Numbered from the stretch's first letter, positions 42,563-64,000 are shown. The stretch is 64,000 nt of DNA from Planctomycetota bacterium (GCA_965223505.1 CBDCWP010000011.1:39077-103076), one strand, 5' to 3'. Program-made: numbers and translations. The notes: generated by a model from the sequence alone, not told the origin.

Positions 42563-42891
42563 CGCACCCTCCTCCAGGCTCCGAGTAGAGCTGCGCCGGA
42601 CGGACCGACTCTACCGTTTTGATCTAGCCATTTGAACCCCCGGCAGATCCCGCGGAGCCGATGGTCACGATCGTCTGTGCGTCGGGCGACGGGTTGCCAT
42701 GGTGTGTTCATGGCCCTGGGTACGGCGCCCGCCGCGGCGGCGAGGACGATGAGGAGCGGGCGTACCACGGGGTCGGTTGTCCCCCGCGCGCGCACGGGCC
42801 GCTAGCGGGGAACCCGGGTGGCGCGGTTGCCCGCGAGCCGAGCCGACACGTAGACTGGATCGGGTGCCGGTGTCGGGGGGATGGAGGTGCG

Positions 42892-43461
42892 ATGAGCGAT
42901 GTCACCCGGATCCTGGCCGAGGTCCAGCGCGGGGACCGGCAGGCGTCCGAGGACCTGCTGCCCCTCGTCTACGACGAGCTGCGCCAGCTGGCGGCGGCCT
43001 GGCTGGCACGGGAGCGACCGGGCCACACGCTGCAGCCCACGGCCCTGGTGCACGAGGCGTGGACGCGTCTCGTGGGCGCCGAGGGTGACGACGGCTGGGA
43101 CGGTCGCGGCCACTTCTTCGCCGCGGCGGCGGAGTCGATGCGGCGGATCCTCGTGGAGCATGCGCGCGCCCGTGGACGGCAGAAGCGCGGTGGCGGCTGG
43201 CGCCGCCGTCCGGAGGCCGCCCTCAACGCGATCGACGGCGGCGATCTGGCCGACGCGGACGAGATCCTCGATGTGGACGATGCACTCGAAGGCCTCGCGC
43301 AGGTGAGCCCGGAGGCCGAGCAGGTGGTGAAGCTGCGCTACTTCGCGGGGTTCACGAACCGGCAGGCGGCCGGGCTCATGGGCATCTCCTCCCGCAAGGC
43401 GGACCAGCTCTGGGCCTACGCCCGTGCCTGGCTCCTGGAAGCGATCGGAGACGGCGACTGA
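42892..43461 (+). CDS. ECF sigma factor (TIGR02999-type)
   Basis: MSDVTRIL, LLPLVYDELRQLA, HTLQPTALVHEAW, FFAAAAESMRRILVEHAR, VKLRYFAG. Confidence 0.92.
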   Translation: MSDVTRILAEVQRGDRQASEDLLPLVYDELRQLAAAWLARERPGHTLQPTALVHEAWTRLVGAEGDDGWDGRGHFFAAAAESMRRILVEHARARGRQKRGGGWRRRPEAALNAIDGGDLADADEILDVDDALEGLAQVSPEAEQVVKLRYFAGFTNRQAAGLMGISSRKADQLWAYARAWLLEAIGDGD

Positions 43462-43514
43462 AATCCGTGCGCATCGCGGGCACGGATGGCGCATGGAAGA
43501 GCAGGACCGACCCG

Positions 43515-46500: not shown

Positions 46501-47027
46501 CATCGATCCGTTCGCTCGAGCCGAATCTCCCGGCGCACACGCAACTGGCGTACGTACTGGCCGCGACGAACCGCGTTTCCGAGGCGGTGGAGCACCTCGA
46601 GCAGGCGCTGAAGGTCGACCCGAAACACTTCGAGGTCGCGAACGCGCTCGCCTGGATGCTCGTCACGCATCCCGATCTCGCGAAGCGTGACGCCCCGCGG
46701 GCCGTCGCGCTGGCGACCCGGGCGCTCGAAGGCTCACCGGACAACGGCGCCGTGATGAACACCCTCGGCATCGCGTTGATGCAGGACGGCAAGTCGAAGC
46801 GAGCGATCGAGGTGCTCATGGAGGCGATCGACCGCCAGCAGGGCGGCAGCGCGTACGACTACTTCCCCCTGGCGGCGGCGCACGCGGCGCTCGGTGCCGT
46901 AGACGAAGCCCGACGCTGGCAGCAGCGCGGACTGGAGTGGATGGCGAAGAACTCGGCGCAGGTGCGCCCCGAGCTCGTGCGGTTGCGTGACGAGGCGGCG
47001 GCGCGCGTGGAACCCGAGAAGAAGTAG
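43515..47027 (+). CDS. Ser/Thr kinase with TM helix and TPR repeats
   Basis: GQGGCGTVY, HRDLKPSN, IDFGVAK, GTPQYMSPEQ; TPRs (AYDNRG, AYHNLS, NALAW). Confidence 0.95.
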   Translation: MDEARIFNEALQRPPRARGAWLADVCDGDDALRARVERLLDAHERGEGFMARGGVADDERTIGAYRILDEIGQGGCGTVYVAEQTEPVRRRVALKVIKAGMDSREVVKRFEAERQALALMDHPNIARVFDGGTTPRGRPYFVMELVKGISILSYCDQCRVSLRERLRLFVEVCRAVQHAHQKGVIHRDLKPSNILVGVMDGRAATKVIDFGVAKAIGQQLTDATFHTAFAQMIGTPQYMSPEQAEMSALDVDTRADVYGLGVVLYELLTGTPPLTRERLLTLPIDELRRVIREEDPPTPSARLTQLNGSGETVAAARRTDLRRLVRAVHGDLDWIVMKALEKDRTRRYDTPLGMADDVERYLANEPILARRPSWAYRGRKFLRRNRTGVAVVAAAVVALALGAWILQDRGARADRLTSDASSALAEATRLQEDAWAGSSRPTRVRGRLEAAAAALDRARALLDAVPGGADAAVATRLKDAYAALRANEADLALLSGIEALRLRDPAIGTPSSATAEREERVRATTRDVEGAQAAFFAQHFGEPGEGNTTDMAARIRARSAPARDAVVAWLYAWHLQAHRAKAPYAGWISGVLEAADEDPLRREVRAAIVRGDRGRIDALARSETPREPLSSMVLANTLLAAGALDAATRVLHRDLLRHPDDYELNSMLAALYVRQRRPREALPYFQAVFALRPDSALHVVALNYVYNHTGAYAEALAAADRAIELDPSLAEAYDNRGVTLFHMERYDAAVKEHERAIARDPGLGAAYHNLSRAQHALGKLADAEATLRRGIKAQPGLAELHAKLSEILLEQGRVPAALEAQRRALQLDPGQAVWFNQLGALLSMVGRPDDAMEAFEQAQALDPSLLEANVNLAQGYAARRQFDKALASCRAALALDEKSEEAHLALGTTHFLMEDYPKALQAFEAVEKLNPENGLALCNLGAVHLRLADPAKAIEACERGLRHLPEGPRQANGYQTMGLAFARQGNGLKAEAAFRASIRSLEPNLPAHTQLAYVLAATNRVSEAVEHLEQALKVDPKHFEVANALAWMLVTHPDLAKRDAPRAVALATRALEGSPDNGAVMNTLGIALMQDGKSKRAIEVLMEAIDRQQGGSAYDYFPLAAAHAALGAVDEARRWQQRGLEWMAKNSAQVRPELVRLRDEAAARVEPEKK

Positions 47028-49638: not shown

Positions 49639-51354
49639 ATGAGGTTCGCCACGGCGGCCGCTCTCTATCTCTTCTTGCTTGCAGCTTGTACAGGAGGCCC
49701 GTGCCGGCCGTGCCCCACGCGGTGCTGTCCGCCGCCCCCGTACCGTGCCATCGCGCCGGCGGCGACGGCCGAGGCCGACCGCGCGCTCCTTTGGGAGGGG
49801 CTTGGCGACTACCGCTACCAGGTCAGCACGGACAACGAGGAGGCACAGCGCTATTTCGATCAAGGGCTGGCGCTCTGCCATGCCTTCAACCACGACGAGG
49901 CGGCTCGGTCCTTCGCGCAGGCCCGCATGCTGGACCCGGGGTGCGCCATGGCCTGGTGGGGCGAGGCGTACGCGCTCGGCCCCAACTACAACCTCCAACT
50001 TCCCGAGCTCTACGGCAATCGAGCGCTCGAAGCGCTCCGCGAGGCCGATGCGAGGAAGGCGGACGCCACCCCATCGGAGAGGGCGCTCATCGAAGCGCTT
50101 GCCGCACGGTTCTCGGATCCCGCGCCGGAGTCCAGCGACAAGGTCGGGCCGCTCAACGCTGCGTACGCGCAGGCCATGGCTGGGGTCTGGGCTGCTCATC
50201 CCGACAATCCCGAGGTGGGGTTCCTCTACGCCGATGCAGTCATGAACCAGCGCCCCTGGCATCTCTATACGCAGGAACGCGAGCCTCATCCCGAAGCGCT
50301 CGAGGCCGTAGCCGTCCTCGAGCGTGTTCTCGGCTTGAACGAGAACCACCCGGGCGCGAACCACCTCTACATCCACGCCATCGAGCCCTCGAAGACGCCC
50401 AAGCGCGCCGAGCCTGCGGCGGACCGTCTCGCGGCGCTCATGCCGGGGGCGGGCCATCTCGTGCACATGCCATCCCACATCTACATGCGCGTCGGCCGGT
50501 ATGCAGACTCGGTAGCGGCCAACGCACGGGCCTCGGCCGTAGATCGCGCCTACTTTGCGCGCGCTCGTGGAGAGCAGGGCATCTACCACATCTACCACTT
50601 GCACAACGATCACTTCCTCATCTGGAGCGAGATGTTCCGGGGCAGGGACAAGGCGGCACTGCGCGCCTGCGAGCAGCTGATGGAGGACGTGCCGGAGCAC
50701 CTCGCCGAGTCTCCCTTCGTCACGGAGTTCTATGGCGTGCGATACCACGTGCTCGTGCGATTCGGCCGGTGGAAGGAACTGATCTCCACCCCGGCCCCAC
50801 CTGCTGTGCACCCCTTCGCCACGGCGATGTGGCACTACGGTCGCGGCGTCGCCTTTGCGAATACGGAACGAATCGAAGAGGCACGCGCCGAAGCGACCGC
50901 CTTCGAGAAGGCAGCCGCCAAGGTGCCGGAGGACCTGGTGATCGCGGTCGTCGTGAAGGCGCACATGGTTCTCGACGTGGCGCGCCAGATGCTCGCCGGA
51001 GAGACGGCGTTCAAAGCGGGAGACGTCGACGAGGGGCTCGCGGCGCTTCGCCGCGCCGCGACCGCGGAGGACGCGCTTCCCTACACGGAGCCGAACCCCT
51101 GGATGTTCCCGACCCGTCACGCGCTCGGAGCGTTGGCTCTCGAGGCCGGACGCGTCGACGAGGCAGCGGCAGCCTACCGAGAGGACCTTGCGAAGTACCC
51201 CGAGAACGGTTGGTCGCTGCATGGCCTCGCCGAGTGCCTCGCGCTCCTGGGCCGTTCCGAGGAGGCCGCGGACGTCAAGGCGCGCTTCCGTCGCGCGTGG
51301 GCCGACGCCACGATCCGCCTCACGGGCTCCTGCTTCTGCCGCAAGGGCAACTAG
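49639..51354 (+). CDS. conserved TPR-like lipoprotein
   Basis: AGGAGG RBS, lipobox LLAAC; AQRYFDQG, FNHDEA, HPGANHLYIHA, HLVHMPSHIY, PENGWSLHGL. Confidence 0.85.
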   Translation: MRFATAAALYLFLLAACTGGPCRPCPTRCCPPPPYRAIAPAATAEADRALLWEGLGDYRYQVSTDNEEAQRYFDQGLALCHAFNHDEAARSFAQARMLDPGCAMAWWGEAYALGPNYNLQLPELYGNRALEALREADARKADATPSERALIEALAARFSDPAPESSDKVGPLNAAYAQAMAGVWAAHPDNPEVGFLYADAVMNQRPWHLYTQEREPHPEALEAVAVLERVLGLNENHPGANHLYIHAIEPSKTPKRAEPAADRLAALMPGAGHLVHMPSHIYMRVGRYADSVAANARASAVDRAYFARARGEQGIYHIYHLHNDHFLIWSEMFRGRDKAALRACEQLMEDVPEHLAESPFVTEFYGVRYHVLVRFGRWKELISTPAPPAVHPFATAMWHYGRGVAFANTERIEEARAEATAFEKAAAKVPEDLVIAVVVKAHMVLDVARQMLAGETAFKAGDVDEGLAALRRAATAEDALPYTEPNPWMFPTRHALGALALEAGRVDEAAAAYREDLAKYPENGWSLHGLAECLALLGRSEEAADVKARFRRAWADATIRLTGSCFCRKGN

Positions 51355-51889
51355 AGGCGGCCCGCGCGATGGCAGGGCCGCGTCCACTCTGGAGATCGAG
51401 CCCCCCGCGGCCCTTGCTTCGAACGGCGTTGTCGCCCTGGCCGTCTGAGGTCAGCGCCGGGGAGCCGTCGCAAGGCGACCGAGTCGGAGGTCGAAGACCC
51501 GGATGCCCCCAAGACGATCGAGGATCTGGTGAAGCGGGCCGAGGCTGGTGAGGCCTTCAGGTTTCAGCCTCGGTGGACATGCTGCTCGTGCTGAAGGCGG
51601 ACGGCACGTTCGACTACTACGGGCGACTCAAGGTGGGCGACGACGATGCCTTGACCCGAAACAGCCGGCCCAGGGAGACCGCCTACAGATTCGAAGGGGA
51701 TCAGCGATGGAGGGAACTGCCGCCAGCACCGGTGGCCCTCACGGGCCTCCCCAAGTTGACGGCACTGGGTTTCTGTAAACCCCCTTACGCACTCACTCCG
51801 GCTCCGCCTTCGCTCGTGCTATCCCCCAACCCGGTCACTTCGCCGGTCGAATTGGCACGAGCCCAGTCCACTCGGACGGAGCTCGTAAG

Positions 51890-51967
51890 TGGTCGGGGCG
51901 ACTGGACTCGAACCAGCGACCTCCTGAACCCCATTCAGGCGCGCTACCAAATCTGCGCCACGCCCCG
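51890..51967 (-). tRNA. tRNA-Pro (anticodon GGG)
   Basis: CGGGGCG acceptor stem, CCTGA-ATGGGGT-TCAGG anticodon arm, GGTTCGAGTCC T-arm, encoded CCA. Confidence 0.97.
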
Positions 51968-52123
51968 ACGCCTCGATTGGTGCGCGGAGTCTACTCCAGC
52001 CCGACACCTCCACCACCGATTCAGCAGCCGTTTGCAAAGTGCGCCCACGAATCCCCAGCGCTCGCTCCCGCTCGACCGGCGCCCCCTGCTCACCCCTCGC
52101 CCCCGCGCCGCGCGCCAGGCCTC

Positions 52124-52720
52124 TCATGCCGAGGCCAGCCCGTCGATCCCAGCTGCGACGTCGCGCTCGAACACGTCGTCACCGCGAAACAAATAGCCGG
52201 CGCCGCCGCGCCTCGCCCACGCGTCCAGGCACTCGCCCTTGTTGTCGATCAACATCACCTCCGACGGCGAACACGCGATGCCGATCCGTTCCATCGCGAT
52301 CTCGCACAATCGACCCTTGTCGGTCGTGCGCTCCTCCCAGGACGTCACGATCGCGTCCGTCACATCGGCGAAGCCGCATGACGGCACGATCACGTCGGAG
52401 AACAGATCCGGATTCACGGTGACGATCGCCTGCGGGAGGTGACGCGCGCGGAAGAAGGCGTGCGTGAACGGGAAGAACTCGATGTGTTCGCAGCGAGCTC
52501 GCATGTGGGCGAGGATCTCATCGGCCGACAACGACATCCGCTCTGACAGCCGCGCTGCGAACGCGCGCACGTCGATGTCGCCCCTGCACCACTCGTTGCC
52601 GAGGCCGTCGTCGAACGTGCGGTAGACCTCCATCCACGCCGGCCCGCTGTCCCAGATGAACCGCTCGTTGCAAAGCGTGTCCCCGAAGTCCCAAAGCAGG
52701 CACTGAATACGCGTCGTCAC
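52124..52720 (-). CDS. HAD-like hydrolase
   Basis: GTG start; LLWDFGDTL motif I, IVTVN, K, LIDN. Confidence 0.7.
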   Translation of the reverse strand: MTTRIQCLLWDFGDTLCNERFIWDSGPAWMEVYRTFDDGLGNEWCRGDIDVRAFAARLSERMSLSADEILAHMRARCEHIEFFPFTHAFFRARHLPQAIVTVNPDLFSDVIVPSCGFADVTDAIVTSWEERTTDKGRLCEIAMERIGIACSPSEVMLIDNKGECLDAWARRGGAGYLFRGDDVFERDVAAGIDGLASA

Positions 52721-52734
52721 GATGGGGGAGCTCC

Positions 52735-53976
52735 CTACGGGCAACAGCGTCGCAGCAGGGCCAGGTTGAGCGCCGCCACCTCGTCGTTGAAGACGTTGTT
52801 GTGGCCGTCGGTCTCGTCCGTCGCCGTCACGATGCCCGATGACTCCAGGTAGAGCACTCTCCGGTTCGACGCCATGCCCCCGAGGTCGCCGGGATCGCCT
52901 TCGCCGCCGACATCGCGAACGTCGAAGTGCGCGTCGCGCTTCCGTGCCCACCCCAGCGCGCGACTCGATCCGACATGCCGCGTCCAGGGCGCGGCCTTCA
53001 CGGCATGGTCGTGCTTCGACGACGTGAGCGCGAACTTCGTATCCGGCCACTCGGCGAACGCCGCGTACGGCGTGCCTTCGAAGTGATGCCATTTGAAAAT
53101 CGTGCGGAGCGTGCTCGATACGAAGCGGTGAACACGAAACGCGCCCTGAAGCGCAATGAAGAGATCGACCGGCGAGCTGCCTTGGTAGTCCACCGCGTCG
53201 AGCAGCGGTCGCGAGAACATGGCGCGGCTCAGCACCCGCGATCCGAAGCTGTGTCCGATGCAGATCAACTTCGTGTCCGTGTCGCGCAGCACCGGCTCCA
53301 ACACGCGATGCAGCAACCGATTCGCGGCCGTCAAGCCGACCTCGTCCGCGTCCGGCGCCTTGTTCGGGTAGCTCGCGAGATGGCCCACGCGGCCGAACGC
53401 CCAGCACGACGGCCACGTCACCGCGAAGACCAACGGCACCACGGGCGCACCCCCGTCCGTCTTCGAATGTCGGACGATACCGTCCACGACCGCGTTGATG
53501 CGCTCCACCGACAGCGCCTGCGCGTTGTTCCAACCCATCGCCACGACGAAGACGTGCGTCGGCTTCAGGCTGTCCACGTCTCGACGAACTCGCTCTTGCA
53601 GCCCTTCCAGCGCCTCTTCGCCGCGCAGGAACGCCCCGGTCGTGGGGCTCGTCTCCTCGAACTCGTTGTGCAGGAAGGCGGCCTTGCCGTTCGCATCGTG
53701 GCGTAGGATGTGCGAAACGAACATGTGACGCGGGTTGCGCAGCCGCCGCCGCAGCCATCCGCGGTACTCGTCGAACGCCTTGGCGCGCGTGTTGTAGTGC
53801 AATCGCAGACGTTTCTTGGGCGGCGCGCCGATGACTTCGCGGTGCGCCTTCTCCACGGCAACGAGGTAGCCGGGAAACGCCAGTCGTACGTCGCATTCGG
53901 GCTGTACGGCCGGGTGAAACGAGCGCTCGAGCTCGCTGTCGATGCCCAGTGCCTTCTCTCGTTCGTCGATGCTCAC
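52735..53976 (-). CDS. alpha/beta-hydrolase fold protein
   Basis: AMGWNN oxyanion-like motif, IGHSFGSR nucleophile elbow, later D and GH. Confidence 0.7.
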   Translation of the reverse strand: MSIDEREKALGIDSELERSFHPAVQPECDVRLAFPGYLVAVEKAHREVIGAPPKKRLRLHYNTRAKAFDEYRGWLRRRLRNPRHMFVSHILRHDANGKAAFLHNEFEETSPTTGAFLRGEEALEGLQERVRRDVDSLKPTHVFVVAMGWNNAQALSVERINAVVDGIVRHSKTDGGAPVVPLVFAVTWPSCWAFGRVGHLASYPNKAPDADEVGLTAANRLLHRVLEPVLRDTDTKLICIGHSFGSRVLSRAMFSRPLLDAVDYQGSSPVDLFIALQGAFRVHRFVSSTLRTIFKWHHFEGTPYAAFAEWPDTKFALTSSKHDHAVKAAPWTRHVGSSRALGWARKRDAHFDVRDVGGEGDPGDLGGMASNRRVLYLESSGIVTATDETDGHNNVFNDEVAALNLALLRRCCP

Positions 53977-54257
53977 ACGCCCTCCCGTTCAACGCCGTAC
54001 GGTAGCTTGCGCGCGCGCCCCGAGGGAAGCGCGCCGGTCGTTGTCAAGTGTGAATCACCCTCGAACGACGCACGTTGGTTCGTTCTTCGTGACGCGGCTT
54101 GCCGGCGCGTGTCGATTTGGCCGGACATGTTGCGCAATCTCGTTGCGAACACTGCGGCTCCCTCTTGATCCGCTTCGCCGGGATCGCTACGTTCGGTCCG
54201 GCGTCGCGAATTTGTGTCTGTAGCGGCGAGGACGACGCAGCCGGGAGGGGTCAACAG

Positions 54258-55640
54258 GTGGCGCGACGCATCGTGATGATCGTCGGTAGGGGCGGTGCCA
54301 CCACCAAGCGCCTCAAGGCCCACCTCACGCGCCAGGGACTACAGGTGAAAACGGTCGCGGACTGCGGCACGGCGACGGAAGCGCTGGCGGAGGCGGCCGC
54401 GCGAGCCGACGAACACGAGCCGCACCCCGTACGGGCCGTCATTCTCGACGTCGAAGGCGCCGGATTCGGCGTGCAGCACTTCCGCGAGATGCTGCAGTCG
54501 GACTACCCGGGCCTGTCGGTGCTCGAGCTGCCGCCGCAAGACGCCGGGCCCGAAGACATCGGCCTCCTCGTCGCCGCGGTCGTTCAGGGCATGCGCAATC
54601 CGGACCCCGCGCGCACCGGTCCGGACGGCGAGGACTTCGAGGGCCCGCTGCACGGGTACCACTTCGAGGATCTGAGCAGCCGCAGCGAGCGCATGCTCGC
54701 GCTCTTCAACGTCATCCCGCGCGTGGCGCAGACCGACAGCCCCGTCCTCATCGTCGGCGAGACCGGGACGGGCAAGGAGCTGGTCGCGGCGGCCATTCAC
54801 CGGCAGTCGCGCCGCCACGACGGCGAGTTCTTCACGATCAACTGCGGCGCCCTGACCGAGACCCTGCTCGAGAGCGAGCTCTTCGGGCACGAGAAGGGCT
54901 CGTTCACCGGCGCGTACCGGACGAAGAAGGGCTACTTCGAGCTGGCGAGCGGCGGCACGCTGTTCCTCGACGAGCTCGGCACCATCTCCACGGCCATGCA
55001 GGTCAAGCTGCTGCGGGTCCTGGAGCGCATGGAGGTGCGGCGCGTCGGCGGCTCGCGGCTGCAGAAGGTGGACGTGCGTATCGTCGCGGCCACGAACGCC
55101 AGCCTGGAGGACGCGGTCGCCGCCGGGACCTTCCGCGAGGACCTCTACTACCGGCTCAACGTCGTCCAGCTCAAGGTGCCCGCGCTGCGCGAGCGGCCCG
55201 AGGACGTGCCGCTGTTGGCGGAGGTGTTCCGCAAGAAGTTCACCGCCGCGCAGGGTCGGACCGACATCACCGGCCTCGACTCGGGCGCGGTGCGGCGCCT
55301 GATGGCCTACCCCTGGCCCGGCAACGTGCGCGAGCTCGAGAACGTCATCGAGCGCGCGGTGATCATGTCCCAGGGCCCGATCGTTCGGGAGACCGACCTC
55401 CCCGAGCGACTGCGCACCGTCGAGAAGCGGCGCACCACGATCCCGTCGTTCGACCTCGACGAGCCCCTGATCGAGGTCGTCCAGCGGGTGCGCGAGGCCG
55501 TCGAGAAGGAATACCTCAAGCGCGTGCTGCGCCGGTTCCGCGGCCATCTGGGCCGCGCAGCCAAACACGCCGGCGTCAACCGGCGCACGCTCTACAACAA
55601 GATGCAGGCCTTCGGGTTGAAGCGCGAGGACTTCCGCTGA
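54258..55640 (+). CDS. sigma-54 enhancer-binding protein (NtrC-like; degenerate receiver, AAA+, Fis HTH)
   Basis: GETGTGKE, ESELFGHEKGSFTGA, GTLFLDE, FREDLYYRL, WPGNVRELEN, AAKHAGVNRRTLYNKM. Confidence 0.95.
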   Translation: MARRIVMIVGRGGATTKRLKAHLTRQGLQVKTVADCGTATEALAEAAARADEHEPHPVRAVILDVEGAGFGVQHFREMLQSDYPGLSVLELPPQDAGPEDIGLLVAAVVQGMRNPDPARTGPDGEDFEGPLHGYHFEDLSSRSERMLALFNVIPRVAQTDSPVLIVGETGTGKELVAAAIHRQSRRHDGEFFTINCGALTETLLESELFGHEKGSFTGAYRTKKGYFELASGGTLFLDELGTISTAMQVKLLRVLERMEVRRVGGSRLQKVDVRIVAATNASLEDAVAAGTFREDLYYRLNVVQLKVPALRERPEDVPLLAEVFRKKFTAAQGRTDITGLDSGAVRRLMAYPWPGNVRELENVIERAVIMSQGPIVRETDLPERLRTVEKRRTTIPSFDLDEPLIEVVQRVREAVEKEYLKRVLRRFRGHLGRAAKHAGVNRRTLYNKMQAFGLKREDFR

Positions 55641-56007
55641 CCCGGAACACGGCCGCGCGACCTGTCGTCGAAACGGCGTGCCACTCGCTCGTCACGACAA
55701 GCAACGGTCTTGGACGACGTGAAGGGCGGCGGGTGTGGAAAAGCCCTTGAGAAACACGTTGCGAGCGTTGGGCAGCCCCATTCCCAAGAACTGTCCCCAG
55801 CCTTCCCAACCACTTAACCAAAAGTCCGTCAAGGGGTTGGACCGTTTCTCCACGCGCATTCCACAAATCGCATAGGGCGCATCGTTCCCAATCCAAACAA
55901 CCGCGCATTGTGCACAACGATGGCGCCTCATGGCTAGAAGGGCGTAAATCCCGCGTTAATGGCCGGGATTTCGGTCACGCACGTTTTTTTTCGAAAGTGG
56001 AACGGCT

Positions 56008-56023
56008 TGGTCCGCGCGTTGCA
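56008..56023 (+). promoter_or_regulatory. sigma-54 (-24/-12) promoter
   Basis: TGGTCCGCGCGTTGCA: GG(56009-10)-N10-GC(56021-22); T-tract upstream; adjacent bEBP gene. Confidence 0.7.
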
Positions 56024-56033
56024 TCTAGCTGCC

Positions 56034-57409
56034 TGCCCTTCGAGGGCAACGATCTTTGATAGGCAAGCGCTGACGAACGGACGAGGAAACCAGTCGCTCA
56101 CCGAGGGACTGTGGCGCCGGGCGGTAGGCCCGGGATCTGCCGCTGCGTGACGTTCAAAGCGGACCCGCCCCGCGAGGGGCGGCGCGAGACGACAGCTCGA
56201 GCGGACTGGGTGCGACAGTCGGTTGCGACTCCCGATCGTGAGGGGTAATTCCCGAGCGGGGATGTCGGCGCAGCAATGTGCCGGCGGAGGGAGACAATAT
56301 CGATCTGCTTAGCGGTGGCGGCCACTTCGGTGGACGTGTTGCATTCGAGAAGATTGGGTCGAGATGTGAAGGCAGCAATGCCGGATCGGAGGATCGCGCA
56401 GACCGCCTGTGGTCTGACCCTTTGAGTGACGCGGACGGAGCGCCGCATATTCGCAAGGTGACGAACCCCAGGAGAGTTGGTGCCCCGGAGACGGGGTGTC
56501 CCACTCGCTTGATTCCAGAGACCCTGAGACCCGGACGGACAGGGACGTCACCCCGACCAAGGGTGCGAGGGGAGGCTCTGCGATTGAAAGCATGAGCCAG
56601 ATCAAGCGGGAGCAGAACTCTGAAGGGGACAAACCTCAAGAAGGGATCGACGGCCGAGATGACCCGAGACTCGTGCTCGGTGAAACGCGGTGCTGTACGG
56701 ACTCGACGCGGGAGCAAAACCCTGAAGGCGGCCTCGGTGCCGACCTTCCTCCTTCGGGGGGAGGGTCGTGTACGCGGCAACGTCAAGAGGGTACGGCCAC
56801 CGAAAGGTGGACCGATCGCGCTCGAGGGAAACCCCTTGGAGAGTGAAGCCCATGGGCGCTCCGACACGACTTGTCGTGTCGGCAGGCGCGGTGAGTAGCC
56901 GCGAAGGGGGTAGCCAAACCCCGCACGTGGCGAGTGTCGGCGGAGGGATCCGCTGGCGTGTACGCGACTCACTGTGCTGGCATGTGCCGTAGGGTGCCCA
57001 AAGTCCACGAGAGGAAGCACCTGCCGCGGCTCGCGAAGCCGGCCCTTGTGGCCGGGGGAACGGGTGGCGGCGATGCGGGGCTTCCGCGGGGTGTCCTCTG
57101 TAGGGGGGCGTAAGCGTATGGAGGGCCTTCCACCGGCTTCGGTTGGTGGAAAGGTGACGCAGCTGTGAGCCCGAAGGGCGACGAACGTCGTACGGGCCGG
57201 ACGGAAACCAATACCCGTCCTAGGCTGCTGATCCGGTGTCCTCGAAACGCCGCGTAACTCCATGAGAGGTTGCGACCACTGCCGCAAGGCGGTGCGAACA
57301 TCTGCGGGAGTTCTCAAGACTCTGAAGGACCGGAGCGATCAGGCGCCGACTCCCTCGTCAGGCTTTCTTAGCCCGGAGCATGGGAAACCATGCTCCGGGC
57401 TTTTCTTTT
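56034..57409 (+). ncRNA. candidate giant (~1.35 kb) structured non-coding RNA
   Basis: Promoter, boxA-like leader, many tetraloop helices with G-U pairs, recurring motifs, terminator; no credible CDS. Confidence 0.7.
57370..57409 (+). terminator. intrinsic terminator
   Basis: AGCCCGGAGCATGG-GAAA-CCATGCTCCGGGCT perfect 14-bp stem running into TTTTCTTTT. Confidence 0.9.
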
Positions 57410-57643
57410 GCGCTGTGCGCGCAGCCAGGCGGAGCATGGGAAACCATGCTCCGGGCTTTTCTTTTGCGCTGTGCGCGCAGCCAGGCGGAGCATGGGAAAC
57501 CATGCTCCGGGTTGGGCAGCCACAAGGGCTGCCCCTACCAAACCAACCAGCTGTAGGGGCGACCCTCGTGGTCGCCCAATGATCCGTCTTGCCTACCGGC
57601 AGTCTGGCGGAGCACGGGAAACCACGCTCTGGGCTTTTCTTTT
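57375..57643 (+). repeat. tandem copies of the terminator hairpin (56-bp period x3 plus a diverged 4th)
   Basis: GGAGCATGGGAAACCATGCTCCGGG at 57375, 57431 and 57487; variant at 57609. Confidence 0.9.
57514..57577. repeat. inverted pair of GTAG-family REP elements (REPIN-like)
   Basis: GGGCAGCCACAAGGGCTGCCCCTAC (57514-38) and GTAGGGGCGACCCTCGTGGTCGCCC (57553-77). Confidence 0.75.
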
Positions 57644-57673
57644 CGGGAGTGTGGCTCTATTGGAACAGGGCGT

Positions 57674-57855
57674 CTAGGCTCTGTTTCGAAACTGCCGTTG
57701 CTGCGCCCGGCGATCCTCTTGCTGCGCCCCGCCCGAACTCGGAACCTCGTCCTCGACGGGCACAGAGCCCGCCTGCGGCGAGAACCGCTCGTTCAGACTC
57801 GGGCTCGCATCGGTCTCCCCGGGCTCGCGACGCGGCATTTCGAAACGGAGCCTAG
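57674..57855. mobile_element. MITE-like non-autonomous element (182 bp)
   Basis: Terminal inverted repeats CTAGGCTC(T/C)GTTTCGAAA, 17/18 identical; CTAG at both ends; no transposase. Confidence 0.7.
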
Positions 57856-58217
57856 TCGCCTCACGCGCTCCCAATGGCGGCGATCACGAAGCCGCCGACG
57901 ATGATCGGCAGCATGGCCCAGACGACACCCTCTGAGGGTATGAACGCCGCTACGACGGCCACAAGCGTCGCCAGGAGGGCCATCCGAAAGCACGCCTTCT
58001 GAGCACGGCGCGCGAAGGGCCCAGGGGTCATTTCTTGCGCTTCTTCCCGCTGCTCATGCCGTTCCCCTCATTGGCCTCGGGGTCATGCTGACCATCTCGT
58101 CGAACACCTCGATCGACACGAAGAAAAGAAGCAGATTCCAATAGAACCCTACTCCCGCTTCTCTTGCCTATCGGCAGCTTTGCGGTGTCACCCTATCTGC
58201 GTTCGAGGGCGTCCGGG

Positions 58218-59240
58218 CTAACCGTTCTGCAAATCCTCGGCTTCGTCCTTCGACTCCCGGCGCATCAGGCTCAACACCACGTCGCGCGGGGACTTGCCCT
58301 CGTGCACGACCATGTACACCTGCTCCGAGATCGGGCCCGACAAGCCATGCTGCTGCATCAGGTCGTGCACCGGCTTCGCGCTCTTCGCACCCTCGGCCAC
58401 CTGCTGCATGCTCGCCGCGATGTCCGCGACCTGCTCGCCACGGCCGATGCGCTCGCCGAACGTGCGGTTGCGGCTCGACTCCGAGTAGCACGTCGTCATC
58501 AGATCGCCCAGCCCCGCCAGACCGAAGAACGTGTTGCGCTGCCCGCCCAACGCCACACCCAGCCGCGCGATCTCGAGCACCCCGCGCGTCACGAGCGCCG
58601 CCTTCGCGTTCACGCCCAGGTTCATGCCGTCGCACATGCCCGCCGCTAACGCGATCACGTTCTTCAAAACGCCGCCGAGCTCCACGCCGACAGCGTCCGG
58701 ATTCGAGTACACGCGAAACGTGTCGCCGGACAACGTGGCCTGGATCGACTGCGAGAGCTCCTTCGAATTGCTGGAGACCACCGTCGCCGCCGGCAACGTC
58801 TGTGCGATCTCGCGCGCGATGTTGGGCCCCGAAAGCACGGCGATGCCGCGCTCCGCGCCCGTGATCTCCTCGAGGATCTGCGTGGGTCGAAGCAGCGTGT
58901 CCTTCTCCAAGCCCTTCGAAACGCTCACGATCGGCAAGTCGTCCGGCAGCTTCGGCGCGTGCGCCGACCACACCGATCGCAGGAACGACGTCGGCACCGC
59001 CGAGATCAACAGCTGCGTCCCGTCGAGCAACGTCTCGATGTCCGGCGAGACGCGAAGCGATGCCGGGAGCTCGTACCCCGGTAGGTAACGCGGGTTCGTC
59101 CGGCTGTCCTGCATGAGCGCCGCGTACTCGGCGTCGTAGGACCACATGGCCACGTCGCGGCCGGCCGCCGCGGCGACCATGGCCAGAGCGGTGCCCCAGC
59201 CTCCATCTCCGACGACGACGACGCGTTGATATTCGCTCAT
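58218..59240 (-). CDS. gpsA: NAD(P)H-dependent glycerol-3-phosphate dehydrogenase
   Basis: GDGGWGTALA, NPRYLPG, SKGLE, LSGPNIA, GGVLKNVIA, GLGDLMTTC, SRNRTFG. Confidence 0.95.
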   Translation of the reverse strand: MSEYQRVVVVGDGGWGTALAMVAAAAGRDVAMWSYDAEYAALMQDSRTNPRYLPGYELPASLRVSPDIETLLDGTQLLISAVPTSFLRSVWSAHAPKLPDDLPIVSVSKGLEKDTLLRPTQILEEITGAERGIAVLSGPNIAREIAQTLPAATVVSSNSKELSQSIQATLSGDTFRVYSNPDAVGVELGGVLKNVIALAAGMCDGMNLGVNAKAALVTRGVLEIARLGVALGGQRNTFFGLAGLGDLMTTCYSESSRNRTFGERIGRGEQVADIAASMQQVAEGAKSAKPVHDLMQQHGLSGPISEQVYMVVHEGKSPRDVVLSLMRRESKDEAEDLQNG

Positions 59241-59264
59241 GGCGCCGTCCGTTATAGCGGAACG

Positions 59265-59945
59265 TCAGAGCTGCTGGTCGATCGCGCCGACCTTGCGCTC
59301 CTTGCCCTGGAGGATGCGAACGATGTTCGACCGGTGGCTCCACACGACGAAGCCGGCCATCACGACGAAGAACGCGAACACGACCAACCGGCTGCGGAAC
59401 GTCGACTCGCCGTTGTCGATCAGGTACGAGAGCGGGATCGCCAGCATCGCGGCCATCGAGCCCATGCTCATGTAGCGCGTGATCGCCACGAACGCGCCCC
59501 ACGCACCCAGCCCATAGAGCGAGGAGAGCGGCGCGAGCGCCGTCACCACACCGAACGCCGTCGCCACGCCCTTGCCGCCCTTGAAGCGTAGGTAAGGCGT
59601 GAACACGTGCCCCAGGATCGCGCCCATGCCGCACAGCACCTGCAGCGTCCATGCGCCGCTCTGGGTGCCCAACGATAGGGCCACCACGTTCGCCGCCTCG
59701 ATCGAGAACAGCGCAACGAACAGGCCCTTGCCGAAGTCGAGCGCGAACACCACGAGGAACATCACCACGCTCGGCGCACCCTGCCAGAGCCGCGAGCAAT
59801 TCGTCGCACCGATGCCGCCGCTGCCGACCTTGCGCAGGTCGGTGCTCTTGAAGACTCGGGCGATCAGCCAGCCGAACGGAATGCCGCCCACCAGATACGC
59901 TGCGAGGAACAGCACGATCTCGGCAGTGGGACTTCCCAGTGTCAT
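59265..59945 (-). CDS. plsY: glycerol-3-phosphate acyltransferase PlsY
   Basis: YLVGGIPFG, GSGGIGATN, DFGKG, GHVF..FKGGKGVAT, HRSNI. Confidence 0.95.
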   Translation of the reverse strand: MTLGSPTAEIVLFLAAYLVGGIPFGWLIARVFKSTDLRKVGSGGIGATNCSRLWQGAPSVVMFLVVFALDFGKGLFVALFSIEAANVVALSLGTQSGAWTLQVLCGMGAILGHVFTPYLRFKGGKGVATAFGVVTALAPLSSLYGLGAWGAFVAITRYMSMGSMAAMLAIPLSYLIDNGESTFRSRLVVFAFFVVMAGFVVWSHRSNIVRILQGKERKVGAIDQQL

Positions 59946-60085
59946 TTCGGCAACCGGCTCCCGGGCCCGGGCGCCGCGACGACGCACCAGCCCGTCGAGA
60001 ATACAGAAGATCCGGGTGAGCGACAGGCGACGAACAGGCGGGGAGGTGGTTTCCGTTCGGACGCCGTTCGTAGGATGAGGGCCGC

Positions 60086-62038
60086 ATGTCCACGCCGCCC
60101 ACCACCCGGATCGGGATCGACACCGGAGGCACCTTCACGGACGTCGTGCGGGACGGCCCGCGCGGCCGCCACGTCGTGAAGGTGCCTTCCACGCCCCGTG
60201 ACCCCGCGCTGGCCTTTCTCCAGGGCTTGGAGGAGGCGGGGGGTGGGCAGAATGACGCACACGTCCATCACGGCACGACGGTCGGCACCAACACCGTCCT
60301 CACCCGCAGCGGCGCCCGGACCGTCTTTGTCACCACCGCCGGCTTCGAGGACCTGCTCGAGATCGGCCGGGGCCAGCGCGACGACCTGCACGGACTTCGG
60401 CCCTCACGCCGCGCGTCGCTCGTCGAGCGCGCGCACTGCGTCGGCGTCAAGGAGCGCATCGGCGCGAACGGTTCCGTGCTGCTGGCCCCGACCCAGCGCG
60501 AGCTCGCCCGAGTGCGCCGCGCCGTGAGCCGCGCAAAGCCCGAAGCGGTCGCCGTCTGCCTGCTGCACGCGACACGCAACGCGCAGAACGAGCAGGCGGT
60601 GCGCGACGCGCTCCTGCCGCTCGGCGTCCCGGTGCACGTCTCGTCGGAGGTCTCCGCGGACCCGCGCGAGTTCGAGCGCGCGGAGAGCGCCGTGCTCGAC
60701 GCGTACGTCGCGCCGGTGGTCGGCGACTACGTGACGCGGCTCGGCGAGCTGCTCGAAGGCGAGACGCTGACCGTAATGCGCTCGGACGGCGGGCGCATGA
60801 CGGCCGGCGAGGTCGTCCGTGCGCCCGTTCGAACGCTGCTCTCCGGGCCCGCCGCCGGCGTCGCCGCGGCGCGCGAGCTCGCTGCGTCGCTGCGCCTGCC
60901 GCGCGTGCTGTCGTTCGACGTCGGCGGAACGAGCACCGATGTCGCCTGGATCGACGCCGGCGACCTTCCCCTACGACCGCGACTCGACGTCGGCCCGTAC
61001 CGCGCGGGCGTTCCGAGCGTCGCGCTGGAGACCGTCGGCGCGGGCGGCGGCAGCGCCGTGTGGATCGACGCGGGCGGCGCGTTGCGCGTCGGTCCGCAGA
61101 GCGCGGGCGCGGATCCCGGACCGGCTTGCTACGGCAACGGAGGACCGCTGGCGTTGACGGATGCATGGTTGTTGCTGGATCGATTGCCCGATGCGCTGCT
61201 GGCGGGCGCGTTCCCGTTGGATGCGAACGCCGCGCGCGACGCCGCGCACGCGCTCGCGTCCGAAGCCCGCCTCTCGCTGCGCGCCCTTTGCGAGGGCGCG
61301 GTTCGCGTCGCCGCGGCGACGACCGCGCGTGCGCTTCGGCTCGCGTCCGTCGCGCAAGGCAACGATCCCCGCGACGCCGCGCTCGTCGCGTTCGGCGGGG
61401 CCGGACCGATGCTCGCTTGCGAGACCGCCGAGCTGCTCGGGATCGACACGATCGTCGTCCCCGCCAACCCGGGGACGTTCGCCGCACAAGGCACGCTCGT
61501 CTCACCGCTGCGCGCGGACGTCGCCCAGGTCGTGGATCGAAGCGACGACCGATCGCTCGACCGCACGCAGCTCGTGCTCGCCAAGCGCGTGCGACGCGAG
61601 CTCGAAGACGAAGGCGCCAAAGACGTGCTGCTGCGCGCCGAGGTCGATGCGCGCTACGCCGGACAGGCGTTCGAGGTCACGGTCCCGCTGAAGGGCTGGC
61701 GCAAGGGGTTCCACGACGCCTACGCCGCGCGCTACGGCTTCGCGACCCCGCAGCGCGAAATCACGGTCACCCGTGTTCGCGTGCGCGGCGAGGGTTGGGA
61801 GGACGAGCACCGCGCCGCCGTACGACGCAAGCGGACCGAGCCGCCCGCGTGGAAGCGCAAGCCGCTCTCGCGGCGCGGCCGCAAGATCCCGGCGCTACGA
61901 CGCGAGACCCTCGATGCCGGTCATCGCGTGACCGGGCCCGTGCGAATCGAGGAGCTCTCCGGCACGACGTTCGTGCCGACGGATTGGCGCTGCGAGTGCC
62001 TCACGGACGGGACACTCCGGTTGCGGAGGCTCGCATGA
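60086..62038 (+). CDS. hyuA: hydantoinase A / 5-oxoprolinase ATP-binding subunit
   Basis: IGIDTGGTFTD, HGTTVGTN, LLSGPAAG, FDVGGTSTD, GAGGGS, SAGADPGPACYG. Confidence 0.9.
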   Translation: MSTPPTTRIGIDTGGTFTDVVRDGPRGRHVVKVPSTPRDPALAFLQGLEEAGGGQNDAHVHHGTTVGTNTVLTRSGARTVFVTTAGFEDLLEIGRGQRDDLHGLRPSRRASLVERAHCVGVKERIGANGSVLLAPTQRELARVRRAVSRAKPEAVAVCLLHATRNAQNEQAVRDALLPLGVPVHVSSEVSADPREFERAESAVLDAYVAPVVGDYVTRLGELLEGETLTVMRSDGGRMTAGEVVRAPVRTLLSGPAAGVAAARELAASLRLPRVLSFDVGGTSTDVAWIDAGDLPLRPRLDVGPYRAGVPSVALETVGAGGGSAVWIDAGGALRVGPQSAGADPGPACYGNGGPLALTDAWLLLDRLPDALLAGAFPLDANAARDAAHALASEARLSLRALCEGAVRVAAATTARALRLASVAQGNDPRDAALVAFGGAGPMLACETAELLGIDTIVVPANPGTFAAQGTLVSPLRADVAQVVDRSDDRSLDRTQLVLAKRVRRELEDEGAKDVLLRAEVDARYAGQAFEVTVPLKGWRKGFHDAYAARYGFATPQREITVTRVRVRGEGWEDEHRAAVRRKRTEPPAWKRKPLSRRGRKIPALRRETLDAGHRVTGPVRIEELSGTTFVPTDWRCECLTDGTLRLRRLA

Positions 62039-63622
62039 CCCGCAGCGCCAACAACCCGGTCGCACTCGCGCTCACGCGCGATCTGCTCGAGAGCGTGGCC
62101 GACGAGATCGCCGCCGTCTGCATGCGCACCGCGGTCTCGCCCAACATCAAGGAGCGCCGCGACCTGAGCGCCGCGGTCTTCGACGGCCACGGCCGCATGG
62201 TCGCCCACGCCGCGCACATTCCGGTGCACCTCGGCGCCATGCCGCTGTCCGTTCGCTCCGCGCTCGATGCGCTCGACCTCGGTCCGGGCGACGTCGCGCT
62301 GCTCAACGACCCGTACGCGGGCGGCACGCACCTTCCGGACATCACGGCGATCCTGCCGGTCTTCGACGGGCGCAACGCGAAGCGGCCGACGTTCGTCGTC
62401 GCGGTGCGCGCGCACCACGCCGACGTCGGCGGCGCGACGCCCGGCTCGATGGCACCCGAACGCGACGTCTTTGCCGAGGGTGTGCGCATTCCGCCGGTCG
62501 TCTGGATGCGCAACGGCGTCGAAGACCACGGCGTCACGCAGCTCCTGCTCGCCAACATGCGCGATCCGTCGGAGCGGCGCGCGGACCTCGCCGCGCAAGC
62601 GGGCGGGCTGCAGCTCGGCGCCAGACGACTGATCGAGATGGGTGAGCGCGAAGGGCGGTCTCGCCGCGCTGGCCCGGCGGGGCAAAGCGCTCATCGACTA
62701 CGCCTCCCGCATCGCGAGCGACGCCCTCTCCGGCCTAAGCAACGGCAGCGTGAAGGCGGAGCAGGCGCTCGAGATCGACGGCATCGACGGCGAGCCGGCG
62801 ATCATCCGCGTGCGCATGCGCAAGCGGGGCGACACGTTGCGCGTGGACTTCAAGGGAACCACCGGCCCGGTCTCGCTGGGACTCAACGCGACCGAAGCCG
62901 TCGCGCGAAGCGCGATCTACTACCTCGTTCGTTGTCTGTGTCCCGACGGCACCCCGACCAACGACGGGCTGCTGAAGTCGCGTGGACGTGCACGTGGCCG
63001 AAGGGGAGCTGTGCTGGCGGCCGACCCGCCGCACCCCGTCGCCGGCGGCAACGTGGAGACGAGTCAGCGCGTCGTCGACGTCTTGTGGCTCGCCGCGAGC
63101 GAGCTCTGGCCGCGTCGCGTGCCGGCGCCGGGCTCGGGCACGATGTCGAACTGGACGTTCGGTCCCCCCAGCGGCAGCGACGCCTTCCCGTCGTATTACG
63201 AGACGTTGCCCGGTGGCGCCGGCGCGGGCCCCGGCGGCGACGGCGCGAACGCCGTTCAACAGCACATGACCAACACGCGCTCGACGCCTGTCGAAGTGCT
63301 CGAGTCGCGCTGGCCGGTGCGCGTCGAGAAGCTTGGGCTGCGCGAGAAGAGCGGCGGCGAGGGGCACTTCCGCGGCGGGGCGGGGCTCATTCGCCAGATC
63401 CGCTTTCTCGCGCCGGCCACCGTGGCCTGCATGATGACGCGGCACGAAACGCCCCCGCCCGGCGCCGCCGGAGGGGCGCCCGGCGCGCCCGGCGTGGTGA
63501 AGCGCATCCGCAAAGGCCGCACGATCCGACTTCCCGCGCGCGGCCGCTTCGAATTCGAGGCCGGCGACGTGCTGCGAATCGAAACGCCGGGCGGCGGCGG
63601 ATGGGGCGCCCGGCACACATAG
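62035..63622 (+). CDS. hyuB: hydantoinase B / 5-oxoprolinase subunit, frameshifted in this sequence
   Basis: SPNIKERRDLS, HIPVHLG, NDPYAGGTHLPD and HHADVGG in one frame; GGNVETSQR, YYETLPGG, HMTNT and TPGGGGWG in another after ~62641. Confidence 0.85.
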
Positions 63623-63687
63623 CCACGCCCCGTGCACGGCAGTACCCTCTGGCGCTCCCCGGCTGTGGATCCGACTTGGAGGGGATC

Positions 63688-64000
63688 ATGGCCCTGCGCC
63701 CCGAATTCCGCTGGCTCTTCTACACCGCGTTGATCGTCGGGCTGCTGCTCCTCATCTCCGCGATGGCGCTCGATCGTCCCGACGTCACCTGGCTGGCCGG
63801 CAAGCCGCACTGCCCGCAGTGCATGGCCGAGGTGAACGACTTCAGCAGCAAGTGCGCCGGGTGCAATGCCCAGTTCGATTGGAGCGTCGCGCCCGACGAA
63901 GCGAGTCCGATCTCCGAATACAGCCTGTCCGCGCTCGAAGACGAGCACCTGCGTGGTCTGGTCTCCGCCATGGGCAAGGAGGCGGCGGCCGCCAACGTCG
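63688..64000 (+). CDS. membrane-anchored zinc-ribbon protein (runs off the window)
   Basis: GGAGG RBS; TM helix, then CPQC-x9-CAGC. Confidence 0.55.
   Translation, partial: MALRPEFRWLFYTALIVGLLLLISAMALDRPDVTWLAGKPHCPQCMAEVNDFSSKCAGCNAQFDWSVAPDEASPISEYSLSALEDEHLRGLVSAMGKEAAAANV

Follow-up and report, generated by a model that had tools for sequence, protein, structure and literature searches.

A large structured RNA gene of uncultured Planctomycetota with a putative sigma-54 promoter and an rRNA operon-like leader

The stretch of DNA analyzed here is a 64,000-nucleotide window from the genome of a Planctomycetota bacterium (GCA_965223505.1 CBDCWP010000011.1:39077-103076; G+C content 68%; positions are counted from the first letter of the window). 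The gene of a sigma-54 enhancer-binding protein, in the following termed the activator, is followed in this window by a non-coding locus, from which a large structured RNA is transcribed, most probably on the same strand. In a frame plot of the G+C content at third codon positions (GC3), a coding signal extends up to 55640 and reappears from approximately 58200, with none in between, in line with the non-coding locus that a preliminary description of this DNA had placed downstream of the activator gene. The features of the locus are the following (positions relative to the promoter refer to the predicted transcription start):

54258–55640, + strand: gene of the sigma-54 enhancer-binding protein (460 amino acids), in frame with a longer open reading frame (ORF) from 54099
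55769–55786, no strand assigned: dyad 1, TGGGCA-N6-TTCCCA, at about −263; candidate enhancer site of the neighboring activator
55849–55914, no strand assigned: TCCAC words (55849–55853 and 55860–55864) and an inverted GTGCA word (55910–55914), flanking dyad 2
55874–55890, no strand assigned: dyad 2, GGG-N9-CCC, at about −160, in a degenerate form
55984–55991, + strand: tract of eight T separating the enhancer region from the promoter; it may be a bend or a site of the IHF type
56008–56023, + strand: sigma-54-type promoter TGGTCC-N5-TTGCA (TGGTCCGCGCGTTGCA), with GG at 56009–56010 and GC at 56021–56022
56034–56048, + strand: boxB-like hairpin TGCCCT-TCG-AGGGCA at the predicted 5′ end
56049–56061, + strand: boxA-like word ACGATCTTTGATA, following the hairpin
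56066–57364, + strand: large structured RNA, body of 1299 nt with 336 pairs in 55 helices
56066–56081, + strand: 5′ strand of the closing helix, AGCGCTGACGAACGGA, pairing with 57351–57364
56161–56359, + strand: lineage-specific expansion (alignment columns 98–296, filled only in the window and partly in locus L002)
56466–56477/56617–56628, 56635–56645/56833–56843, 56719–56730/56781–56792, 57003–57013/57320–57330 and 57095–57106/57258–57269, + strand: five copies of one structural module
56845–56998, + strand: most conserved domain of the RNA, the basis of covariance model R1
57351–57364, + strand: 3′ strand of the closing helix, TCCCTCGTCAGGCT, in which ..TCGTCAGGC.. is invariant in 15 of 15 sequences
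57370–57409, + strand: intrinsic terminator, consisting of a hairpin (57370–57401) followed by TTTCTTTT

The locus is the gene of a structured non-coding RNA, as its pairing covaries beyond the controls, it has a promoter and a terminator of its own, and it carries no coding signal. RNAalifold applied to 15 full-length copies yielded 267 pairs, 167 of which show compensatory changes. In a second consensus fold, comprising the 336 pairs in 55 helices listed above, 90.4% of the cells are paired, compared with 38.7–43.8% when the partners are slid by one to three columns, and 218 pairs are changed on both sides (86–100 after sliding). None of 500 shuffles reached any of the five observed measures. 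These statistics are somewhat overstated, because of the relatedness of the genomes and because the same alignment served to derive the structure, but the margin is still very wide. The fold contains 392 GU/UG cells and 119 AC/CA cells; this large excess of GU over AC indicates that the + strand is the one that fits as RNA. Insertions and deletions in the region do not occur in multiples of three.

The two ends of the RNA are joined by the closing helix (AAGCNCUGACGA with UCGUCAGGCUU; 13 pairs, 96.4% of the cells paired, seven pairs invariant in 15 sequences). The word CTGACGA close to its 5′ end and the complementary TCGTCAG close to its 3′ end frame the molecule; they are separated by 1038–1080 nt in 13 relatives, by 1214 nt in L002 and by 1285 nt in the window. 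The size of the RNA across the copies ranges from 1.05 to 1.3 kb. The DNA matches of the relatives fall into two blocks (approximately 56044–56149 and 56431–57409), most of them without the expansion in between. The module that occurs five times is built of a helix, a 3 × 3 internal loop and a second helix (5′-CCC-ANG-AGAG with 5′-CUCU-GRA-GGG); each copy closes a major domain, and the letters of the loop are kept while the flanking pairs covary. A hairpin and a T run follow the closing helix in 11 of the 12 loci viewed and are not visible in L006. The RNA belongs to no known family: a cmscan search of 50000–64000 gave no Rfam 15 family on 56000–57400 (E up to 1), a collection that covers rRNA, RNase P, tmRNA, introns, GOLLD, ROOL, OLE and HEARO among others. 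Complete 16S, 23S and RNase P RNAs are encoded elsewhere in the genome.

When 41 genomes, those of 40 relatives and that of the window itself, were searched at the DNA level, 23 gave matches. Besides the window genome, these were 20 of the 24 further members of its family and 2 of 11 from a sister family; none of five from other families of the phylum matched. When the genomes of 185,579 species were scanned for the exact pattern of a 31-nt degenerate word of the RNA, 18 loci were obtained, all in metagenome-assembled genomes (MAGs) assigned to Planctomycetota, Planctomycetia or Planctomycetales; these loci (L043–L060) mostly belong to the same genomes as L002–L020 and were not counted as independent. 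With covariance model R1, exactly one copy was recovered from each of 34 among the 40 genomes of the order, which represents the whole class of these uncultured Planctomycetota. The family contributes 23 of its 28 other genomes and the sister family 10 of its 11, and of the high-quality genomes 16 of 17 have the copy. Among 151 genomes sampled evenly across the phylum, nine had a match, seven belonging to this class and two to other families (G063 and G067). The RNA is encoded by a single-copy chromosomal gene with fixed neighbors, which is not phage-associated; the end of gpsA adjoins the RNA in the relatives, too.

Contigs from sequencing libraries were found to cover the RNA body. Of 24 runs listed, 18 are recorded as RNA, and four runs from four studies were compared with the locus in the form of assembled contigs: X1 from sludge ("probably DNA") and, recorded as RNA, X3 from marine sediment, X4 from soil and X5 from a coral reef. 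All four contain contigs on the RNA body (approximately 56060–57368). A 1269-nt contig of X3 lies wholly on 56061–57327 with 112 differences, a contig of X4 on 57218–57363 shows a single difference, and several contigs join across the expansion of the window, as the relatives do. Assembled contigs cannot show starts, ends, strand or level; the contig ends at 56060–56064 and at approximately 57360–57368 are at most a hint at trimmed ends, and the stretches uncovered in the four runs (55600–56025 and 57446–57700) carry no weight for the limits of the transcript, nor do summed depths for its abundance.

The sigma-54-type element upstream of the RNA is found at the place given in the preliminary description and has the exact GG-N10-GC spacing described there, within boxes of the TGGCAC-N5-TTGCW type. 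The match alone is not significant, because TGG-N8-TTGCW occurs twice in the window with 1.24 occurrences expected, and 35 of 100 shuffles contain at least two. Its weight derives from the conservation of the element at the same place in the relatives: all 20 family loci and all four of the sister-family loci inspected have GG-N10-GC at the corresponding position, and wherever the distance was measurable in the family, the element precedes the closing helix by 31–67 nt. The variant TGGYMC-N5-TTGCH is found in 13 listed family loci including the window, CGGCAC-N5-T(G/C)GCT or GGGCAC-N5-TCGCT in four loci of two genera, TGGACC-N5-TTGCT in L014 and CGGCCC-N5-TTGCG in L017, while the four loci of the sister family display GGGCAC, TGGCCC or GGGCCC, followed by N5 and TTGC. 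An inserted repeat places the promoter of L013 (TGGCCT-N5-TTGCA) farther from the closing helix; a run of (CAG)n and three tandem units of approximately 16 nt ending in ..GACAAGCAC were observed there (G013, approximately 560–740 of the locus), and the promoter is displaced by about 200 nt.

The genome encodes both rpoN (Sigma54_DBD match at G000:C37, 208 bits) and an enhancer-binding protein with a GAFTGA-type loop. Counted as 12 nt after the C of GC, position +1 is predicted at 56034, and transcription would start at about this position. The T tract that had been reported with seven T is present and consists of eight. It is weakly conserved: L002 and L003 carry A/T runs of at least seven at a similar place, L005 and L008 have shorter runs of T, and most other loci have no such run. 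Two look-alike stretches, ..GACCTTTGACAG..GCC.CAAACGCCTGACTTCTGGGCTTTG.., were noticed elsewhere in the genome (G000:C26, approximately 138108, − strand, and C44, approximately 298726, + strand), which may be a repeated promoter or a small element.

Both parts of the leader, the hairpin and the GATCTTTGA at 56051–56059 within the boxA-like word, were recovered as described before. The letters of the hairpin vary among the genomes with the pairing being kept. In 14 of 18 leaders folded, it begins 0–4 nt after the predicted +1 and has a folding energy of −6.4 to −22.2 kcal/mol; four of the 18, from two genera, contain no hairpin, and the boxA-like word starts at +4. A boxA-like word follows GG-N10-GC in all 20 family loci and all four sister-family loci inspected. 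Most relatives read GCTCTTTGA(C/A)A(A/G)ACAAGC after the hairpin, and the core TCTTTGA is exact in 12 of the 20 family loci. A possible pairing of the word with TTCAAAG at approximately 56153 was discarded, as this sequence lies within the window-specific expansion and is not conserved.

The same arrangement was found in the rRNA (rrn) operons of the organism. Its own 16S leader contains a hairpin and then ACGAACTTTGACA, where the RNA leader contains a hairpin and then ACGATCTTTGATA; in full, the hairpin is followed by TT and ACGAACTTTGACATTT, approximately 260 nt ahead of the 16S rRNA gene, and the spacer between 16S and 23S carries GGGTCTTTGACATTT before 23S. In the 16S leaders of eight family relatives (G001, G004, G005, G006, G008, G009, G012 and G014), words similar to ACG(T/A/C)(T/A/C)C(T/C)(T/C/A)TGACA follow a hairpin, so that the layout of hairpin, 0–5 nt and word precedes 16S in the window genome and in these eight. 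Two rrn leaders were seen in the sister family, GGTTCTTTGAAAACA in G025 and GATCTTTGAGAAA in G030, the latter reading ..TTGAGAAA.., and its RNA leaders read TTCTTTGAAAATG, GGTTCCTTGAAAAAG, TTCTCTGACAAG and ATCATTGAAAAAATG. The sequence ..TTGAAAA.. is shared by three of these four RNA leaders and the rrn leader of G025, whose RNA leader (L079) is GGTTCCTTGAAAAAG.

The rrn operons of Bacillus subtilis have a small 5′-terminal hairpin directly followed by AUGAUCUUUGAAA, which is bound by BsNusB (PMC13753749; of this and the other papers cited here, the accessible part of the text was used). The word in the window matches this consensus in 11 of 13 letters. The commonest word of the relatives, GCTCTTTGACA, shows one mismatch to the gamma-proteobacterial boxA consensus GYTCTTTAANA (PMC5725501). 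The genes nusB and rho are present in the genome (two NusB-domain and two Rho_RNA_bind matches). The boxA-like word is located outside the structured core, just 5′ of the end-joining helix, and thereby holds the place that boxA has relative to the leader-trailer helix of pre-16S rRNA (PMC10250234, accessible part). On the basis of these sequence comparisons, the leader is best read as a copy of the organism's own rrn leader.

The activator contains Sigma54_activat (E = 3.8e-69), AAA_lid_14 and HTH_8 domains, the last being a Fis-type helix-turn-helix (HTH), and the GSFTGA loop noted earlier is indeed present; no NCBIfam equivalog scored above its cut-off. The N-terminal region of approximately 115 residues is conserved in 12 orthologues and matched no Pfam family, Response_reg included, at E values up to 10. 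An AlphaFold model built from these 12 orthologues displays an alpha/beta domain of four strands and four helices (predicted local distance difference test, pLDDT, 75.8), for which Foldseek returned no match at E ≤ 0.001; the best value was 1.2e-3, with receiver and pseudo-receiver domains among the weak matches. The receiver-like domain of the preliminary description is therefore plausible from these weak matches but not established, Response_reg being unmatched. The lack of the N-terminal acidic pair is borne out by the alignment of the orthologues, in which GR or GG occupies the position. An Asp is kept in ..LDVEG.. of the orthologues, and the activator differs from NtrC-type proteins, which have a receiver domain with the acidic pair and a phospho-acceptor Asp. 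In the reading favored below, the sensor domain is atypical and probably non-phosphorylated.

The activator gene is linked to the RNA gene in relatives. Using tblastn, 16 of 19 relatives were found to have it adjacent to the RNA, always upstream and in the same orientation; this agrees with the synteny suggested beforehand. L010, L018 and L019 were missed in this search, and other genes lie directly upstream of the RNA there. For non-adjacent cases, the search covered G009, G006 and G019 and left out G024, the genome of L018; a full-length orthologue was found in each of the three, upstream on the same contig and strand (G009, 69% identity, approximately 2.7 kb; G006, 63%, 3.6 kb; G019, 63%, 3.9 kb).

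The 330 bp ahead of the promoter are conserved in the relatives and contain two dyads. Of 18 family loci, 17 have an 18-bp dyad, YGGGNN-N6-NNCCCR, at −260 to −273, and 16 have a second one at −157 to −170, at a distance of 103 bp from the first in the relatives. Neither was found in any of four sister-family loci, which also lack an orthologue of the activator. Because they co-occur with the activator gene, the dyads are the better candidate enhancers for this activator, which would bind to them. The CGCGCATT..CACAA repeats that had been proposed as enhancer sites do exist (55853–55866 and 55902–55917), but as candidate enhancers for this activator they rank behind the dyads. They belong to the conserved TCCAC/GTGGA words, which are also found in the sister family without the activator orthologue. 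Further GTGGA words are situated at 55735–55739 and 55997–56001. TCCAC near −184 and −173 and GTGGA near −123 recur in the family loci, and in the sister family these words are arranged as an inverted repeat. A second factor may make use of them.

The reading that we favor, with moderate confidence, is that of a self-contained sigma-54 unit making a large non-coding RNA, with its own activator and with an rrn-type leader on which Nus factors are loaded. The activator would bind the two dyads approximately 160 and 263 bp upstream and open the sigma-54 holoenzyme parked at TGGTCC-N5-TTGCA. Transcription would begin at about 56034, and the first 28 nt would form the hairpin directly followed by the boxA-like word. 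NusB/S10 and other Nus factors would then load on this leader and render the polymerase resistant to Rho over approximately 1.3 kb of untranslated RNA; the Nus-modified polymerase might also be a better folding platform. The helix of 12–13 bp would join the 5′ and 3′ ends as the leader-trailer helix does in pre-16S rRNA, the intrinsic terminator would end the transcript, and the flanks would probably be trimmed back to the helix. As for the role of the RNA, the recurrence of one internal-loop module five times leads us to guess that it is a stable scaffold holding one protein in several copies, or else a self-assembling RNA. That it is a new large RNA machine or scaffold, synthesized like rRNA, assembled into a particle via the five modules with several copies of a protein or with itself and made only on the signal sensed by the activator, is a tentative proposal.

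Several observations weigh against parts of this reading, and the strongest competing explanation concerns the leader. The hairpin and the U-rich word might be unrelated to Nus factors, the hairpin protecting against 5′-end-dependent decay and ..CUCUUUGA.ACAAGC.. being a site for another protein or a spacer. The core of the word differs from TCTTTGA by one or two letters in 8 of 20 family loci, and in the window GATCTTTGATA mismatches two of the 10 fixed positions of the 11-letter GYTCTTTAANA, which is a gamma-proteobacterial consensus. The 12-mer CGANCTTTGAYA occurs three times in the genome with 1.24 expected, so that its count is weak evidence alone, and no boxC was recognized in the leader. 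The distant homologue in G063 appears to have neither a boxA-like word nor a sigma-54 element; an apparent sigma-70-type promoter (TTGAAC, 17 nt, TTAATA) was observed at approximately 880–930 of this locus (L078), which belongs to another family of the phylum. Three contigs of X3 end at 56060–56064, just past the boxA-like word, rather than at 56034, with the limit on contig ends given above. We nevertheless regard a leader free of Nus factors as rather unlikely, since the same layout precedes 16S in the window genome and eight family relatives with the word recurring before 23S, matches the one in the rrn operons of B. subtilis (PMC13753749, accessible part), and places the word just 5′ of the end-joining helix and outside the structured core, as boxA is placed in pre-rRNA. 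The assignment of the activator is likewise open to dispute. Another sigma-54 activator, common to the sister family, could bind the TCCAC/GTGGA words, and the neighboring gene would be linked for a different reason. The two sister-family genomes searched have no orthologue of the activator, as only its AAA+/HTH part matches (48%), but the sister family keeps the promoter, the leader and the TCCAC..GTGGA inverted repeat, which implies that another activator can serve this promoter. The true enhancer might be the words that the two families have in common. Dyad 2 is degenerate in the window, and the window and L002 fail the exact pattern. Each genome examined (G006, G009, G019, G025 and G027) encodes 17–22 paralogues of the activator at E ≤ 1e-60. 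The linkage of the neighboring gene (adjacent in 16 of 19 relatives and present nearby in all three non-adjacent genomes checked), the co-occurrence of the dyads with it and the precedent of sigma-54-dependent RNA genes adjoining activator genes, such as cbrB-crcZ (PMC5113210, accessible part), make this explanation unlikely in our view.

Two further explanations question the promoter and the RNA gene as such. The sigma-54 element might not be a working promoter, the RNA being cut from read-through of the activator gene or transcribed from an unrecognized sigma-70 promoter. CrcZ can also be processed from a cbrB read-through transcript according to the accessible part of PMC5113210, and the promoter match taken alone is at chance level in the window. 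However, all 24 loci inspected have the element at a fixed distance, also those with a different upstream gene, and the CTTTGACA-like word, the TTGACA-like part of the boxA word, was rejected as a sigma-70 −35 box because no −10 box is found at 17 bp in the window or in the relatives; we consider this explanation very improbable. It is hardly conceivable that the stretch is a long leader, the mRNA of a small protein or an element acting at the DNA level. Nothing beyond mechanical ORFs in GC-rich sequence speaks for it, whereas the absence of a GC3 signal, the insertions and deletions not in threes, the 218 compensatory pairs, the terminator directly following and the converging downstream genes all argue for an RNA gene.

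Downstream of the RNA, gpsA (58218–59240) and plsY (59265–59987), with frames taken from GC3, converge on the locus, and no co-directional gene follows the RNA. An ORF at 58168–60192 (674 amino acids) was rejected as the downstream gene, since its translation is Arg-rich nonsense and GC3 points to gpsA and plsY instead. Between the RNA and gpsA, an ORF on the − strand (57861–58031, 56 amino acids) contains a hydrophobic stretch and has no other support. The upstream ORF in two sister-family loci ends in a sequence that we take to be the end of typA/bipA. The terminator hairpin is present in four tandem-like copies (57375–57399, 57431–57455, 57487–57511 and 57609–57633), three of which are followed by CTTTTCTTTT and the third of which is not; among the genomes looked at, this 56-nt unit is duplicated only in the window genome. 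A long GC-rich palindrome at 57509–57585 matched mir-3150 on both strands (35.5 and 33.2 bits, gathering score 100) and is probably a REP-like element rather than a microRNA; this sub-threshold match, like one to anti-hemB nearby (21 bits), was taken as chance. Farther upstream in the window, an Rfam scan placed a tRNA at 51893–51967, and a gene for an extracytoplasmic function (ECF) sigma factor is directly followed by that of a Ser/Thr kinase of 1186 amino acids with many tetratricopeptide (TPR) repeats (42661–47027, + strand). The 23S rRNA gene (G000:C34:218405-222063) spans 3659 nt compared with 2925 positions of the model, corresponding to insertions of roughly 700 nt.

Among known systems, the closest published wiring is cbrB-crcZ and the closest leader is that of rrn operons. 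In Pseudomonas, the activator gene cbrB is likewise followed by an RpoN-dependent promoter on the same strand and by a non-coding RNA in which a motif is repeated (PMC5113210, accessible part). CrcZ, which is a few hundred nucleotides long and carries repeated protein-binding motifs, differs in being a protein sponge. The RNA described here measures 1.05–1.3 kb, has 55 covarying helices and a leader of the rrn type, and its ends are joined by a helix; its activator is without a recognizable receiver domain. A sigma-54 promoter and a dedicated enhancer-binding protein also control the RNA genes of Qrr/LuxO, GlmY/GlrR and Pxr, whose RNAs of approximately 100–200 nt are base-pairing or decoy regulators; nothing at the locus of the window suggests such regulation.

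The rrn leaders of E. coli and B. subtilis share with the leader of this RNA the order of a 5′ hairpin, a boxA-like word and an end-joining helix (PMC13753749; PMC10250234; accessible parts). Unlike the rrn operons with their growth-rate-controlled sigma-70 promoters, the RNA gene has a sigma-54 promoter and an activator, its product is not an rRNA (no Rfam SSU or LSU match in the region), and a boxC was not seen. In gamma-proteobacteria, boxA precedes suhB and CRISPR operons (PMC13753749, accessible part), where it heads a long untranslated and otherwise Rho-targeted transcript as proposed here (PMC13753749; PMC5725501; accessible parts), but there the transcript is an mRNA leader or a CRISPR array. 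The survey behind GYTCTTTAANA left non-coding RNAs out (PMC5725501). In the literature, with paywalled papers outside the scope, we encountered no large structured non-coding RNA for which a boxA is reported and no description of this RNA, of a large RNA driven by sigma-54 and boxA, or of sigma-54, a boxA leader and an end-joining helix combined before a non-ribosomal RNA.

GOLLD, ROOL, OLE and raiA resemble this RNA as long, intricately folded and conserved non-coding RNAs without a known role that came to light through comparative analysis, but the RNA described here matches no Rfam 15 family (E up to 1) and is a single-copy chromosomal gene with fixed neighbors and a dedicated sigma-54 switch. 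To our knowledge, it is longer than any of those four. It is present in 34 of 40 genomes of its class, with pieces in RNA libraries from sediment, soil and reef, and its size makes it a natural target for cryogenic electron microscopy (cryo-EM) and for a search for protein partners. Each part of the wiring is known separately, be it sigma-54 promoters with adjoining activators for RNA genes, boxA leaders or leader-trailer helices; together they would offer a concrete answer to the question of how a bacterium transcribes more than 1 kb of untranslated, non-ribosomal RNA despite Rho. If the tentative proposal of a new RNA machine or scaffold is true, no larger structured RNA would be known in bacteria apart from rRNA, and this RNA would be the first that borrows the antitermination of rrn operons for its synthesis.

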